Source: Candidatus Saccharimonadota bacterium
Lineage (GTDB): Bacteria > Patescibacteriota > Saccharimonadia > Saccharimonadales > UBA4665
Length of the DNA: 32,000 nt
Assembly (NCBI GenBank): GCA_016700375.1
Contig: CP065016.1
Location: 990,001 to 1,022,000 of the forward strand
Direction of reading: 5' to 3'
Shown: positions 8,658 through 21,859 of the stretch, in pieces
Position numbering within the stretch: position 1 is the stretch's first letter
How the letters are laid out: the number at the start of each line of letters is the position of its first letter
Program-made: the position numbers and the translations under genes
The notes under the pieces: model-generated
Database searches by the model: none
The model's input: the letters and a program-made list of their open reading frames with translations, nothing else
What the model was told of the DNA's origin: nothing

Positions 8658-9977
8658 TTCTAGTTCTCAATGCTATGGCCTCATGACAAAATAATCCCCA
8701 CATCCTAAGCCGACACCCCAATCGTATAGTTCCACTCACCATGAAAGTCTTCTTGCCGCACGTTTAGTGCGGCGAGCTCTTTGTCAGATATCTTGATGCC
8801 TTTTTCATAGATATTCGTATCGGCTACGGCTGTGACTGTCAGCCCTGATGTGGTGGTTGTGCTGGAGATAAGTCGGATTATAGTTTCTAGACTAGTCAAT
8901 GGCTTCGCTCTCCAATTGATGGATATGTATGAGAAGAGCTTATGCTCTATGGCATTCCACTTGCTCGTAGCTGGAGGGTAATGCCTGATGGTAATCGGTA
9001 TACCTATCTCATCGACCAACTCCTGTAATTCCTTCTTCCACAACCTGTTCCGTGAACCATTACTCCCGCCACCGTCACAAGTGATCAGGAGACGCTTTGC
9101 ATTGGGATACAGTTTACGACCATGTTCCTTCCACCACCGTCGGATACTTTCAACAGCAAAGGCTGAGGTATCGGCACTGGTGCCGACATTCACGAACCCG
9201 GTGTTTGTGAGTCGATCATAGATGCCGTACGGCACCGCCTTGCCGTCGGCGAGAGATGGAAAGTCGTAGACATTGACGACTTCTGCGCTACCTTTTGGCT
9301 GCCATTCCCGGCCATTGTTCTTGAAGTTGCCGAGGAGTTCTTTTTTCTTACAATCAACTGAGATAACAGGGTCGCCGGTTGCTAGAAAGTCTTTGATGGT
9401 AGTATTGATCAATTGAAACTGACCGTCCCGGTCAGGGTGTGAAACACCCTCAACGTTCTTCTTATTTGCCTGTAGGGAGAAGCCTTTTGCTTTGAGGATA
9501 CGGCCAATTGTACGGTAGCTGACTGCATGACCGGCTTTGTTGAGAGTGCTCTCAAGCCTACTGAGTGATTTGGTAGTCCACTGTATTGGGCTCATTGGAT
9601 CCCCCTTGGGATCGAGTAGTGCTTCAAGATCAGTTTCCAGGGTTGGGTCAGTATCCGTCAGTGTCTTTCTGCCGCCACCAGGTAGACGGATACGGTCAAG
9701 GAGTGGTGGGGCTTTACTGTCAGCTATCCCTCTGGAGACCGTCTCACGATCTACGCTGGCAACCCTGGCAACCTGTGAGATACCACCGAGCCCTAGCTTA
9801 CGAGCTTCTGTCCCGAGATATATACGCCATTGGCGTTCATTGAGAACAGGGCGTAGTAGTTCATATTGGTTTTCTTGGGTGATCGTATTTGTTTCTGTCA
9901 TACCTAACAGTATGGCAGATTGAGGCTATGTTGTGGTGATTATTTTGTCAGGAGGCCTATAGCATGAAGAACTAGAA
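8658..9977 (-). mobile_element. ISAzo13-family insertion sequence (about 1.3 kb)
   Basis: Imperfect ~47-bp terminal inverted repeats: 8658 ttctagttctcaatgctatggcctcatgacaaaataatc... versus the reverse complement of 9931-9977, ttctagttcttcatgctataggcctcctgacaaaataatc... An intact transposase lies inside. The outer boundaries could extend a few bp (cttacatt / cttcacatt). No clear target duplication was seen. Confidence 0.8.
8705..9901 (-). CDS. ISAzo13-family DDE transposase
   Basis: The 398-aa ORF carries hallmark blocks of the ISAzo13 / Rhodopirellula-type DDE transposase: LPGGGRK, PIQWTTKS, HPDRDGQF, ISVDCKKKELLGNFKNNGREW, AVPYGIYD, LITCDGGGSNGSR, YPPATSKWNAIEHKLFS and GEWNYTI. Confidence 0.9.
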   Translation of the reverse strand: MTETNTITQENQYELLRPVLNERQWRIYLGTEARKLGLGGISQVARVASVDRETVSRGIADSKAPPLLDRIRLPGGGRKTLTDTDPTLETDLEALLDPKGDPMSPIQWTTKSLSRLESTLNKAGHAVSYRTIGRILKAKGFSLQANKKNVEGVSHPDRDGQFQLINTTIKDFLATGDPVISVDCKKKELLGNFKNNGREWQPKGSAEVVNVYDFPSLADGKAVPYGIYDRLTNTGFVNVGTSADTSAFAVESIRRWWKEHGRKLYPNAKRLLITCDGGGSNGSRNRLWKKELQELVDEIGIPITIRHYPPATSKWNAIEHKLFSYISINWRAKPLTSLETIIRLISSTTTTSGLTVTAVADTNIYEKGIKISDKELAALNVRQEDFHGEWNYTIGVSA

Positions 9978-10037
9978 CAGGTAATGTGAAGCTGTGTACA
10001 TCCGAAGGTATATCTGTTAAAATCGTGCTGTGACCTT

Positions 10038-10170
10038 CGGGGAGTGGCTTGAGTCCGGTAGCGTGAGATCCGCCAGTGGCGGACCGCAAGGGAGTCCACT
10101 CTTGAAAGCTGTGCTTTCAAAGATGTGGCGACGGGGTCGCCGAAAGTGACCGCGGTTTGGTTCTACCGCG
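10038..10170 (+). repeat. tRNA-derived three-hairpin module, copy A (pseudo 5' half of tRNA-Pro plus hp1-hp2-hp3)
   Basis: CGGGGAGTGGCttgAGTCCGGTAGCGt matches 23 of 27 nt of the acceptor/D-arm of tRNA-Pro(UGG), which lies 174 nt downstream. It is followed by hp1 GATCCGCC-agt-GGCGGACC (10067-10085), GCAAG, hp2 TTGAAAGC-tgt-GCTTTCAA, hp3 GGTCGC-cgaaa-GTGACC, and a final hairpin CGCGGT-n8-ACCGCG. Confidence 0.75.
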
Positions 10171-10211
10171 TTCATAGAATAGGGTACAATACATTTACGT
10201 CGTCAATTTGT

Positions 10212-10288
10212 CGGGGAGTGGCGCAGTCCGGTAGCGCACTCGGTTTGGGACCGAGGGGTCGCAGGTTCAAATCCTGTCTCCCCGACCA
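10212..10288 (+). tRNA. tRNA-Pro (anticodon UGG), CCA encoded
   Basis: Hand-folded cloverleaf: CGGGGAG/CTCCCCG acceptor, GCGC/GCGC D-stem, CTCGG-TTTGGGA-CCGAG anticodon arm, GCAGG-TTCAAAT-CCTGT T-arm, A73, CCA. Confidence 0.9.
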
Positions 10289-10327
10289 TAAGAAAATACC
10301 TCAGCAGAGCTGGGGTGTTTTCTTATG
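10289..10327 (+). terminator. Intrinsic terminator-like hairpin after tRNA-Pro(UGG)
   Basis: ataAGAAAAtaCCTCAGCagaGCTGGGGtgTTTTCTTat has a GC core stem extended by A-tract/U-tract pairing. Confidence 0.7.
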
Positions 10328-10417
10328 TCAGTGAGATGTGGTGCGAGCTTGCGCGCAGGTTCGTGGACGAGGAACGGAGCAAAAAACGAAAGTTTACTTT
10401 TGTTTTTAGCGAGTACC

Positions 10418-10456
10418 GCAGGGAAGAGGGCGAAGCCCGATAATCCTGTCCCCTCG
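10418..10456 (+). repeat. Degenerate copy of the tRNA-Pro(UGG) T-arm/acceptor 3' strand with a hairpin inserted in the T-loop
   Basis: GCAGG-gaagaGGGCgaaGCCCgatAAT-CCTGT-CCCCTCG compares with the tRNA GCAGG-TTCAAAT-CCTGT-CTCCCCG. Confidence 0.65.
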
Positions 10457-10520
10457 TGGGATACTACGCCGCATCTTCCCTCATGCAATACAGGTGTTAT
10501 TTACGGCTTTTCACCCAGGG

Positions 10521-10529
10521 TGCTATAAT
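10521..10529 (+). promoter_or_regulatory. Extended -10 promoter element (TGCTATAAT) for tRNA-Pro(CGG)
   Basis: TGnTATAAT lies 18 nt upstream of the tRNA. The following leader ACCTCTGTT is shared with the tRNA-His promoter region (16214-16229). Confidence 0.6.
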
Positions 10530-10547
10530 TACCTCTGTTAATTTCAC

Positions 10548-10624
10548 CGGGGTGTAGCGCAGCTTGGTAGCGCGCGTCGTTCGGGACGACGAGGTCGTGG
10601 GTTCAAATCCCGCCACCCCGACCA
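10548..10624 (+). tRNA. tRNA-Pro (anticodon CGG), CCA encoded
   Basis: CGGGGTG/CACCCCG acceptor, CGTCG-TTCGGGA-CGACG anticodon arm, GTGGG-TTCAAAT-CCCGC T-arm, A73, CCA. Confidence 0.9.
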
Positions 10625-10661
10625 TACAAAAGACTCGGCACGTGCCGAGTCTTTTGTATGG
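10622..10661 (+). terminator. Perfect 40-nt palindromic terminator-like hairpin after tRNA-Pro(CGG)
   Basis: CCATACAAAAGACTCGGCAC|GTGCCGAGTCTTTTGTATGG overlaps the encoded CCA. Confidence 0.75.
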
Positions 10662-10780
10662 CATAGCCGGGTTTGGACCCACGACCAGAGATTCGCGCAG
10701 CAAAGATCGTAGGTCGTGAAGGTCGCGTAGCGGAGAAAGGAAACGGAAGCTTGCTCACGTCCCTTTCGGAGTGGAGGAGC

Positions 10781-10805
10781 GCAGCGATAATCCTGCCACC
10801 CCAAC
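10781..10805 (+). repeat. Degenerate copy of a tRNA-Pro T-arm plus the tRNA-Pro(CGG) acceptor 3' strand
   Basis: GCAGcgatAATCCTGC-CACCCCaac. The acceptor strand CACCCC matches the adjacent CGG tRNA. The AATCCTG T-loop/stem matches the UGG tRNA. Confidence 0.55.
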
Positions 10806-10871
10806 TACGCTAGTGCTTATTGCAAAATTCCCCATGCACTGTAGTATGAAGCATATAACACGGAGGGTACT

Positions 10872-16311: not shown

Positions 16312-16493
16312 AGATAAAGCCCCTGCGAAAGCGGGGGTTTTATCTTGGCGGCGTGGTGGCTTGAACACACGCCCAAGGCCGTGGGTGAGACCCGCCAGTG
16401 GCGGGTCGCAAGACAATCTTCTCTTGAAAGCTACGCTTTCAAAGATGAAGTTGTGGGGTCGCCGAAGGTGACCAAGCCCCATCATTCGCCCCA
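16312..16493 (+). repeat. tRNA-His-linked unit 1 (182 bp): terminator hairpin + three-hairpin module + copy of the tRNA-His 3' end
   Basis: The terminator is AAGATAAAGCCCCTGCgaaaGCGGGGGTTTTATCTT. The module runs 16347-16472, with hp1 GACCCGCC-agt-GGCGGGTC, hp2 TTGAAAGC-tac-GCTTTCAA and hp3 GGTCGCC-gaa-GGTGACC. This is followed by an exact copy of CAAGCCCCATCATTCGCCCCA (16473-16493 matches 16291-16311). Confidence 0.85.
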
Positions 16494-16847
16494 AGATAAA
16501 GCCCCTGCGAAAGCGGGGGTTTTATCTTGGCGGCGTGGCGGCTTGAACACACGCCCAAGGCCGTGGGTGAGACCCGCCAGTGGCGGGTCGCAAGACAATC
16601 TTCTCTTGAAAGCTATGCTTTCACGCATTTCGCACTTTGAGCTCATGTGCATTTTCTCCTTGAAGCACGGAAGGAGCCGTACTAGGGTACGGCGAGTGAG
16701 TACTGGAAAGGAAAAATGTGCAGGAGTCAAAGAAGCAAGCGGTGCAACCAGCTTTGCTGGTTGGCAGGCTGGCTGGTGTGAAATACGTGGCTTTCAAAGA
16801 TGAAGTTGTGGGGTCGCCGAAGGTGACCAAGCCCCATTATTCGCTCC
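16494..16847 (+). repeat. tRNA-His-linked unit 2 (unit 1 sequence interrupted by a 166-bp MITE), ending in a degenerate tRNA-His 3' copy
   Basis: Near-identical to unit 1 apart from the insertion at 16624-16789. It ends in CAAGCCCCATtATTCGCtCC (16828-16847), followed by a third, degenerate terminator hairpin. Confidence 0.85.
16624..16789. mobile_element. MITE-like insertion (166 bp) with imperfect TIRs and a 7-bp target duplication
   Basis: The termini are CGCATTTCGCAC and, at the other end, the reverse complement of CGTATTTCACAC (10 of 12 match). It is flanked by the direct repeat GCTTTCA (16617-16623 and 16790-16796). Unit 1 provides the uninterrupted empty site. Confidence 0.75.
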
Positions 16848-16933
16848 TGTAAAGCCCCTGCGAAAGCGGGGACTTTATCTTGGGAAAAGATGGGCCGCGT
16901 AAGGTATCAACATATACTGCGGAGGTGTAGTTT

Positions 16934-18198: not shown

Positions 18199-18861
18199 AT
18201 GGTAAACAAAAAATCAAAAGCTTTATCGCTGAGGCGGCAGGGTTATTCCTATGTACTAATACATGAAAAGACAGGCGTTCCGTTAAGCACAATGAGCTAT
18301 TGGTTTCGGAATATGCAGTTCACGCCAAATGCTCAGGTGCGGGAAAGGATGCAAAATGGCTCAAAAAGAGCTGGATTAGTTCGTCGCAGACAAAGGATTG
18401 CAGATACAGCCGCACAAATAGGAAGAGGCATCACAGATATAGGCACATTGACGGAAAGGGATCTTTGGATGCTGGGTCTCGGGTTGTATATTGGGGAAGG
18501 AGCTAAAACTACTGAACAAGTAAGAGTAGCAAATTCAGACCCCGAGGTCATACGTTTGATAATGGCCTGGTTGCGTGGGCTTGGTGTTCCAGACAAAAAT
18601 ATAAATTTGGCTATACACATTTATCCCGATACTAGCCCGGAGCTTAGTAAGGACTTCTGGCTGAAGACAACTGGCCTATCTGAGAGCAATTTTGGCTGGG
18701 TTAGTATAGATAAGCGGGAAAATAAAAGCCGAAAGGCTGCCGGGAAACTACCATATGGCACTGCCCACATTATTTTGCGCGCAAGAGGGGAGCAGAAATA
18801 CGGAGTGCAGTTTTTTCGACGTCTAAAAGGATGGATGCAAGGAGTCTATAATCAGGTATAA
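18199..18861 (+). CDS. Free-standing LAGLIDADG-like (single-motif) homing-endonuclease-like protein with N-terminal HTH
   Basis: The N-terminal HTH-like segment is RRQGYSYVLIHEKTGVPLSTMSYWF. The central block DLWMLGLGLYIGEGAK fits the LAGLIDADG dodecapeptide, with an acidic residue in the GEG position. TATACT lies 6 nt before the ATG. The assignment rests on the motif only. Confidence 0.5.
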   Translation: MVNKKSKALSLRRQGYSYVLIHEKTGVPLSTMSYWFRNMQFTPNAQVRERMQNGSKRAGLVRRRQRIADTAAQIGRGITDIGTLTERDLWMLGLGLYIGEGAKTTEQVRVANSDPEVIRLIMAWLRGLGVPDKNINLAIHIYPDTSPELSKDFWLKTTGLSESNFGWVSIDKRENKSRKAAGKLPYGTAHIILRARGEQKYGVQFFRRLKGWMQGVYNQV

Positions 18862-19248: not shown

Positions 19249-19502
19249 AATATATGAGGGGCTCGCCACATTCTGCGGTCCCGCTTCTGCGTGTGGTTAG
19301 GCATAGCCTAACCGGCAGAGAGCCTTGCGGTTTGCCGCTGGCAAACTTCACCCTCAACGGCTCGTATTCGGAATAAATCCGAATACGGCCTACTCCCCCT
19401 GAAGCTCGGACGAACGCCTCGTAACCGGTCAATAAGGTCCTACCTTTGTTTAAAATGTTGTACCAGTAACATATTTTGTATAAATTATGATATAATATAC
19501 CT

Positions 19503-21693: not shown

Positions 21694-21766
21694 GGAGGCT
21701 TATTATATCACTAGTGGTATATTACACTCAATTCCGACAAGCAATCAAGCAATGGGCAAAGCGAAA

Positions 21767-21859
21767 GACTTGCCAGGGGCGAGTCGCAAGGCAACCTTCC
21801 GGGCAAGCTATGCTTGCCGCAGTGAAGTTGCGGGGTCGCAGGATGCGACAAGGTCCTCC
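21767..21859 (+). repeat. Orphan copy of the three-hairpin module (no adjacent tRNA)
   Basis: hp1 GACTTGCC-agg-GGCGAGTC, then GCAAG, hp2 GGCAAGC-tat-GCTTGCC, GTGAAGTTGCGGG, hp3 GTCGCA-gga-TGCGAC, and CAAGGTCCTCC. The terminal GACAAGGTCCTCC is repeated at 21948-21960. Confidence 0.75.

Follow-up and report, generated by a model that had tools for sequence, protein, structure and literature searches.

In a 32,000-nucleotide stretch of the genome of a Candidatus Saccharimonadota bacterium (GCA_016700375.1, contig CP065016.1, positions 990,001 to 1,022,000 of the forward strand, referred to here as the window; the genome is G000 in our comparisons with other genomes such as G002, G003 and G008), there are two intact proline tRNA genes, tRNA-Pro(UGG) and tRNA-Pro(CGG). 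Each is followed by a terminator and then by a non-coding unit of 130-180 nt (units 1 and 2, respectively) that ends in a degenerate copy of the 3' part of its own tRNA. A third unit is found upstream of tRNA-Pro(UGG), where a 5' pseudo-copy of the tRNA is split by a three-hairpin element, module A (10038-10170). A reading made from the sequence alone had described both tRNA-Pro genes as followed by mimics of the T-arm and acceptor strand, and the strings it quoted are indeed present at 10418-10456 and 10781-10805. The identity between mimic and tRNA is 13 of 17 bases for unit 1 and 14 of 17 for unit 2, with CCA excluded, and such matches are weak on their own. Unit 1 has orthologs in G011, G010, G012, G003 and G020, and its end is a perfect 19-nt copy including the CCA in G011 and G020. 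The ortholog of unit 2 in G002 shares 92% identity and also carries a perfect 19-nt tRNA copy with CCA, and the copies in G014 and G016 are decayed. Since the orthologous units end in perfect 19-nt copies with CCA, the Pro mimics are real, but decayed in G000. The Pro stretches are real but worn members of a family of tRNA-trailing cassettes of the type of the RtT repeats of Escherichia coli.

The T-loop insert of unit 1 is a whole 78-nt module, module B, and its anatomy differs from the one proposed in the sequence-only reading. The GCAGG at 10418, which had been taken as the 5' strand of the copied T-stem, belongs to module B in every context (the module also follows Ser tRNAs and precedes Asp and Arg tRNAs), and the T-stem 5' copy sits ~80 nt upstream. 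The GAA-loop hairpin that had been described as the T-loop insert exists in unit 1 (10428-10438), but as P3, the last and variable helix of the module, and unit 2 has none. The TTCG of unit 1 is borne by the module, because tRNA-Pro(UGG) has TTCA at this place. The inverted T-arm copy of unit 1 is weak in G000; the GTGAGAT motif and the TTCG are both present, and GTGAGAT is a genuine family motif, as had been suggested, which also occurs in the Ser units and, class-wide, in left arms. In unit 2, the T-stem had been thought to resemble the other Pro tRNA; this comes down to a single C-to-T change, and G002 holds the exact Pro(CGG) sequence there. No promoter-like site of their own was found for the Pro downstream units. 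Covariance models were made in this work for module A (R1) and module B (R2), and the features of the two loci are collected in Table 1.

Table 1. Features of the tRNA-Pro loci, in window coordinates.
Feature	Position	Strand	Evidence or remark
Promoter-like site before the upstream pseudo-tRNA-Pro unit	9995..10023	+	9/12 consensus positions, TG extension
Degenerate copy of the tRNA-Pro(UGG) 5' part (acceptor 5' strand, D-arm)	10038..10062	+	Orthologous in G002, G008, G021
Module A, 88-nt three-hairpin element between D-arm and anticodon arm of the pseudo-copy	10062..10149	+	R1 87 bits; 24/30 pairs with compensatory changes
Remnant anticodon arm of tRNA-Pro(UGG), genus-typical stem kept	10152..10170	+	
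tRNA-Pro(UGG), intact	10212..10288	+	ARAGORN and Rfam
Terminator-type hairpin with T-run behind tRNA-Pro(UGG)	10289..10328	+	Read from sequence; orthologs keep structure, not sequence
Unit 1 left arm: GTGAGAT motif and hairpin	10329..10354	+	Motif common to Ser units and left arms across the class
Unit 1 copy of T-stem 5' strand, and TTCG	10355..10363	+	Sequence comparison; the tRNA itself has TTCA
Module B: P1 encloses long hairpin P2; purine-rich strand; short P3 (10428-10438, GAA loop); GAT	10358..10444	+	R2 92.7 bits; folds
Unit 1 decayed copy of T-loop 3' half, T-stem 3' strand and acceptor 3' strand of tRNA-Pro(UGG)	10442..10456	+	Perfect in G011, G020
Promoter-like site of tRNA-Pro(CGG)	10500..10529	+	10/12 consensus positions
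tRNA-Pro(CGG), intact	10548..10624	+	ARAGORN and Rfam
Terminator-type hairpin behind tRNA-Pro(CGG)	10625..10661	+	Sequence, ortholog comparison
Unit 2 left arm: inverted (reverse-complement) copy of tRNA-Pro(CGG) variable region and T-arm	10666..10686	+	Local alignment, score 28, z 5.7
Unit 2 small hairpin separating inverted and direct copies	10687..10711	+	Also in the tRNA-Lys(UUU) unit
Unit 2 direct copy of variable region, T-stem 5' strand and T-loop start	10712..10725	+	
Unit 2 insert, diverged relative of module B	10726..10788	+	Alignment z 5.3-5.8 against module B; R2 does not find it
Unit 2 decayed copy of T-loop 3' half, T-stem 3' strand and acceptor 3' strand of tRNA-Pro(CGG)	10789..10805	+	Perfect with CCA in G002

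The arrangement at the Pro loci is one case of a pattern seen across the genome. For each tRNA of G000, its own 17-nt 3' end, without the CCA, was sought within 400 nt downstream, with shuffled flanks and non-cognate queries as controls. Such copies were found for 12 of the 42 tRNAs, against 0.015 with shuffled flanks, and non-cognate tRNA queries matched in 12 of 1638 pairs. Partial own-end copies are therefore far above chance, and beyond this window too. By local alignment, direct copies at +132 to +180 were found behind 15 tRNAs, and five of these 15 also have a significant inverted copy at +42 to +66. The tRNAs with downstream 3' copies are those for Glu (two), Ile, Gly (three), Asp, Ser (three), Met, Lys, His and Pro (two), and upstream copies of the 5' end are found at six tRNAs, for Gln, Gly (two), Asp and Arg (two). 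The 5' fragment that the sequence-only reading had placed upstream of tRNA-Arg(UCU) is present. That reading had concluded that tRNA-specific 3'-end capture is a general property of this genome region; general it is, but not regional, since the whole genome and the clade show the pattern, and capture is a fitting word for the outcome, every unit bearing the end of the tRNA that it trails, though as a mechanism it would be conjecture. That reading had also missed the inverted T-arm copy and misread the anatomy of the T-loop insert.

Some partial copies carry no module, namely those at tRNA-Ile and tRNA-Arg(UCU). In the spacer of the rRNA operon (G000:C1:638830-638906), at least 31 nt of the 3' part of tRNA-Ile, reaching from the region of the anticodon stem to the CCA, recur as an exact copy ~37 nt behind the gene; a tRNA can thus be partly duplicated with no insert present. 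Behind tRNA-His there is a tandem array of three units (window 16312-16860), the first two of which are near-identical, terminator included, and the third of which has a nested insertion of ~165 nt (16627-16790) in the apical loop of the long hairpin of module A. An open reading frame of 220 amino acids lies between tRNA-Arg(UCU) and tRNA-Gly(UCC) (window 18199-18861, + strand); it has a LAGLIDADG-looking motif and no Pfam match at E 0.001. The single contig of G000 begins inside a repeated tRNA-Gln(CUG) copy, so that the assembly is not closed at that point. No tRNA-Asn gene was found in G000 by ARAGORN or the Rfam tRNA model, despite 98.5% completeness.

Two modules recur within the units, and their distribution was surveyed in 141 sampled genomes of the class. 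Module A, of 88 nt, is found in 22 of these genomes with 1 to 24 copies per genome in this survey, and 25 copies were counted in G000. Across 19 aligned copies, 24 of the 30 pairs of the predicted fold have compensatory changes, and a single pair is conserved as G-U. All module A copies that were inspected in other genomes lie within a partial tRNA copy beside the intact cognate tRNA, and the point of insertion may be the D-loop, the D-stem, the D/anticodon junction, the anticodon loop, the variable region or the T-loop. Two copies in the window (19266-19352 on the - strand and 21762-21848 on the + strand) lie within a dispersed repeat, 'X', instead of a tRNA copy; the hairpin of X, which has a T-loop-like palindrome, also occurs empty nearby, which gives a filled/empty pair. 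Module B is found in 41 of the 141 genomes, mostly of other orders, in 1 to 7 copies. In G000 it lies behind tRNA-Pro(UGG), tRNA-Ser(UGA) and tRNA-Ser(GCU), and upstream of tRNA-Asp and tRNA-Arg(CCU). Twelve module B copies were sampled from other families and orders, and all 12 are found directly behind a co-oriented tRNA and its terminator and are followed by the T-stem 3' and acceptor 3' strands of that tRNA (Ala, Arg, Asn, Gly, Met, Thr or Val); in 10 of the 12 the tRNA copy is exact over at least 13 nt, whereas those of Ala and one Met are degenerate.

From 5' to 3', a unit consists of an inverted acceptor 3' strand and T-arm, in which the complement of the loop is altered to the GTGAGA-type motif, then GGTTCG, the module, (N)AT, and the T-stem 3' strand, the acceptor 3' strand and CCA; units with module A share the build of those with module B. 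The predicted fold of the unit has a closing helix, three hairpins, the middle one being long, and a free NCCA end. P2 was predicted in nine of nine module B copies when folded as single sequences, whereas RNAalifold on a MAFFT alignment missed it owing to misplaced gaps. Neither module has a match in Rfam 15, and, at gathering score, Rfam matched the five tRNAs of the window and nothing else. A sub-threshold match of 22 bits between unit 1 and the Clostridiales-1 RNA recurred neither genome-wide nor on pristine units of other orders, and was set aside as noise. A relation to tmRNA was also discarded, with a normal tmRNA gene located elsewhere in G000. We found nothing relevant in the literature on tRNA repeats or T-loop insertions in Saccharibacteria or Patescibacteria.

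With regard to RNA, we used contigs from four metatranscriptome libraries; these may represent DNA carry-over and cannot prove transcription, and the parts that they leave uncovered are not evidence of absence. G000 occurs in wastewater and activated-sludge runs. Unit 1 is covered by contigs of 318 nt, which spans both tRNAs, and 227 nt, and unit 2 by a contig of 207 nt. In a wastewater RNA library, one contig of low depth runs from the upstream flank (80 nt, without differences) straight into tRNA-Pro(UGG), joining 10036 to 10211, and represents an allele that lacks the pseudo-copy and module A. An intact gene for a DDE transposase of the ISAzo13 family (437 bits; window 8705-9901, - strand) is the direct upstream neighbour of the tRNA-Pro cluster.

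Several observations bear on how the units came to be where they are. The two copies of module A in G127, one in a Leu unit and one in a Val unit, are 100% identical, which fixes the boundaries of the module. The module A upstream of Pro in G000 groups with the Gly and Gln copies of that genome rather than with its orthologs in G002, G008 and G021. The distribution of the modules across genomes is patchy, with copy numbers from 1 to 25, the Pro units that are carried differ between species of the genus, and parts have been lost from the Pro units of G000, G003, G014 and G016. The patchy distribution, the identical copies of G127, the grouping of the G000 copies, the filled/empty sites, the nested insertion in the His unit, the presence or absence of units among species and the contig that lacks the upstream unit all argue for spreading. 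In light of these data, and of the cognate-specific excess in the genome, the uniform build, the module-borne TTCG, the E. coli parallel and the predicted fold, we favour, with confidence about evenly balanced, the explanation that the Pro units are old and partly decayed RtT-type cassettes, which occur class-wide and have spread between tRNA loci by copy-and-paste at the DNA level. The cassettes would originate through template switching, or through recombination, where the T-arm and the terminator form hairpins, and the module would bring the halves of the T-loop at its ends. Such an event would duplicate part of the tRNA rather than break it, which would explain why an intact cognate tRNA always adjoins the unit, and the modules could afterwards move, or convert, between tRNA loci. 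Having no promoter of their own, the Pro units would be made only as read-through RNA from the terminators, and this RNA is predicted to fold into the closing helix, three hairpins and tRNA-like 3' end.

Certain observations weigh against copy-and-paste followed by decay. The mean pairwise identity of unit 1 among six species is 95% for the tRNA, 85% for the 3' mimic, 79-83% for the junction strands of module B, 55% for the left arm, 48% for the terminator and 23% for the downstream flank. The junction strands and the 3' mimic are thus kept far better than the flanks, and the module core is kept class-wide, which points to constraint at the level of the host or to gene conversion, because neutral relics should not be so well conserved. 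Every copy seen beside a tRNA is co-oriented with it, and this, together with the conserved G-U pair of module A, would fit selection on one strand or on an RNA. As for the machinery, a mobilising enzyme was not found for the modules. Of the 22 genomes with module A, 14 lack Y1_Tnp, including G083 with its 15 copies. Transposases of the Y1 type, including the tyrosine transposases associated with repetitive extragenic palindromic sequences (REP; the transposases are known as RAYT), were considered as mobilisers and rejected, as their presence does not track that of module A and, in G000, the hairpins on either side of the RAYT-like genes are different ones. The one tyrosine recombinase and the one reverse transcriptase of G000 were also considered, and neither lies beside the units. 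Lastly, we infer the template-switching step solely from the inverted-plus-direct arrangement of the tRNA copies. The RAYT-like Y1 transposase genes of G000 are three different ones (G000:C1:973847-974491, 957549-958298 and 1156366-1157055), each between its own REP-type hairpins, and three identical copies of an IS200-type element are present elsewhere in the genome.

The same conservation speaks for the explanation that we rank second, after DNA-level copy-and-paste with later decay. The units could be host genes for small RNAs that mimic tRNA ends, one per tRNA species, with a closing helix that copies the acceptor/T minihelix and ends in NCCA. Such an RNA would be trimmed by the enzymes of tRNA processing and could engage the partners of the acceptor end of the cognate tRNA, comparable to the effect on the stringent response proposed for E. 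coli rtT. Consistent with this, the module cores are conserved class-wide and their stems covary, orthologous units are conserved far beyond their flanks and are strictly co-oriented with the tRNA, the predicted four-way fold is stable with a free 3' NCCA, units 1 and 2 are both covered by RNA-library contigs, and E. coli rtT has been described as processed from the tyrT transcript (bioRxiv 10.1101/2024.07.17.603846). Against it, the units lie behind terminators and have no promoter, and the contigs may be DNA carry-over; in the upstream-type units it is the 5' and not the 3' part of the tRNA that is kept, which makes for an inconsistent mimic; the tRNAs that bear a unit differ by genome, and many genomes have none; and decay is plain to see in the Pro units of four genomes (G000, G003, G014 and G016). 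We regard host-encoded RNAs as a possible but tentative explanation.

Direct repeats of a tRNA 3' end downstream of an intact gene are also what attL/attR-type scars would look like, if integrative elements had entered the tRNA 3' end and their cargo was later lost. True islands do integrate at these tRNAs, at tRNA-Pro(GGG) in G000 and at tRNA-Pro(UGG) in G020. The former is a 3.8-kb island (L057; G000:C1:659000-662880) between tRNA-Pro(GGG) and a displaced module-B unit that keeps a perfect tail copy, and it encodes a large serine recombinase of 551 amino acids and a gp3-like DNA-packaging protein; the latter is a 3.3-kb insert (L058; G020:C32:17900-21700) with a SET-domain gene and a LigT/2'-5' RNA ligase-like gene, and lies between tRNA-Pro(UGG) and a tRNA-tail remnant followed by the terminator and unit 1. 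Both islands leave the unit outside, however, and the unit predates the island. Moreover, merely 130-170 nt of non-coding sequence separate the repeats, with the same conserved module in distant lineages, and the T-stem 5' copy before the module, the inverted copy and the upstream 5'-type units are left unexplained by scars; no integrase is associated with the units, the single tyrosine recombinase being elsewhere. Integration scars are thus decidedly unlikely. The units could otherwise be working tRNA genes with a removable insert, an intron, in the T-loop, and the inserts do occupy loop positions of tRNA-like sequence. Indeed, at one stand-alone locus (G000:C1:1029050-1029225), a tRNA-like gene has module A in its T-loop, with a perfect acceptor stem, T-stem and CCA, and removal of the module yields tRNA-Val(CAC) by ARAGORN, an anticodon for which G000 has no other gene. 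This copy has degenerate D and anticodon arms, though, and of the 22 loci from which module A was excised, the Pro downstream units not being among them, the other 21 yielded no tRNA. The Pro units have no anticodon arm, no module-skipping contig was seen in the four RNA libraries, for which contigs only were available, and Rfam detects no intron family. Introns are unlikely to the point of being scarcely tenable as a general explanation, and for the Pro units they are close to refuted.

Attachment-site scars resemble the units of G000 in that the intact tRNA gene is followed by a direct repeat of its 3' end, and the units differ from them in the lack of an integrase or cargo, in the T-arm copy split by a conserved module, in the inverted copy and in the 5'-type units. 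REP sequences and REPINs with their RAYT, and other bacterial miniature inverted-repeat transposable elements (MITEs), are likewise short, non-coding, hairpin-rich and dispersed, with variable copy number and near-identical copies in some genomes. The units of G000 are set apart from these by arms that copy the local tRNA, by restriction to tRNA-derived contexts and by a Y1 transposase that does not track the modules, and neither a target-site duplication at the filled/empty site nor element-specific terminal inverted repeats were found. The introns of tRNA genes, both the bacterial group I and the archaeal ones, are also inserted at a loop position of a tRNA sequence, and archaeal bulge-helix-bulge introns occur in T-loops too, whereas the units of G000 are truncated pseudo-tRNA hosts beside an intact gene, with inserts of 60-90 nt that have no intron core and no spliced joints seen. 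Tandem inversion duplications are grouped here with template switching. The latter takes place at quasi-palindromes during replication (PMC8794818), and it shares with the units the direct-inverted-direct order centred on a hairpin-forming sequence, and stems that are perfected or extended; on its own it does not explain a conserved module common to different loci and lineages.

The closest likeness is to the RtT repeats. Repeats of 178 bp behind tyrT of E. coli have been known for decades. We took as reference the tyrT-tyrV-rttR locus of E. coli K-12 and its Rfam model (RF00391, gathering score 45 bits). In this locus, the 178-nt repeat consists of an inverted copy of the tRNA-Tyr T-arm, in which the complement of the loop is changed to ATGAGAAG, then GGTTCGA, a GC-rich structured insert and an exact 19-nt tRNA tail, and it is present three times. 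The ATGAGAAG of RtT is of the same motif type as the GTGAGA of the G000 units. As in G000, RtT RNA lies behind a tRNA on the same strand, has a tail copy that begins inside the T-loop, and has a closing helix with hairpins. The Pro units of G000 themselves share with RtT the downstream position on the same strand, a length of ~130-180 nt with the last 17-19 nt a tail copy, and the succession of inverted T-arm, GGTTCG and insert. At the level of sequence the units of G000 do not belong to this family: the RF00391 model had no match in G000 at E up to 10, R2 had none in the E. coli RtT locus, and the insert of RtT is only weakly similar to that of the tRNA-Lys(UUU) unit of G000 (z 4.0). Furthermore, the annotated E. 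coli locus shows one tandem array, which follows a single tRNA without an intervening terminator, whereas G000 has a terminator before each unit, many tRNAs with units, several module families and an upstream 5'-type version.

The mode of action of E. coli rtT, the RNA processed from the tyrT transcript, was called unknown in a 2024 preprint (bioRxiv 10.1101/2024.07.17.603846). A broader view, which we consider rather doubtful, is that RtT-type units are a universal bacterial device, and not junk, each making a small RNA that copies, with its closing helix and NCCA end, the acceptor end of the tRNA just upstream, so that terminator read-through would report the transcription of that tRNA. Equally doubtful is the extension that its partners could be the cognate synthetase, the CCA-adding enzyme, EF-Tu or the stringent factor, with the modules as effector or binding domain and one function for E. 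coli rtT and the units of the Candidate Phyla Radiation. Should the units be mobile, no enzyme that moves them can be recognised; should they be functional, they constitute a new family of RNAs that mimic tRNA ends. The build seen behind one tRNA of E. coli is common and diverse in Saccharibacteria, at many tRNAs and with at least two module families conserved across the class, and it offers material for comparison such as the lone E. coli locus has never given, by which the origin and role of RtT-type units become testable.

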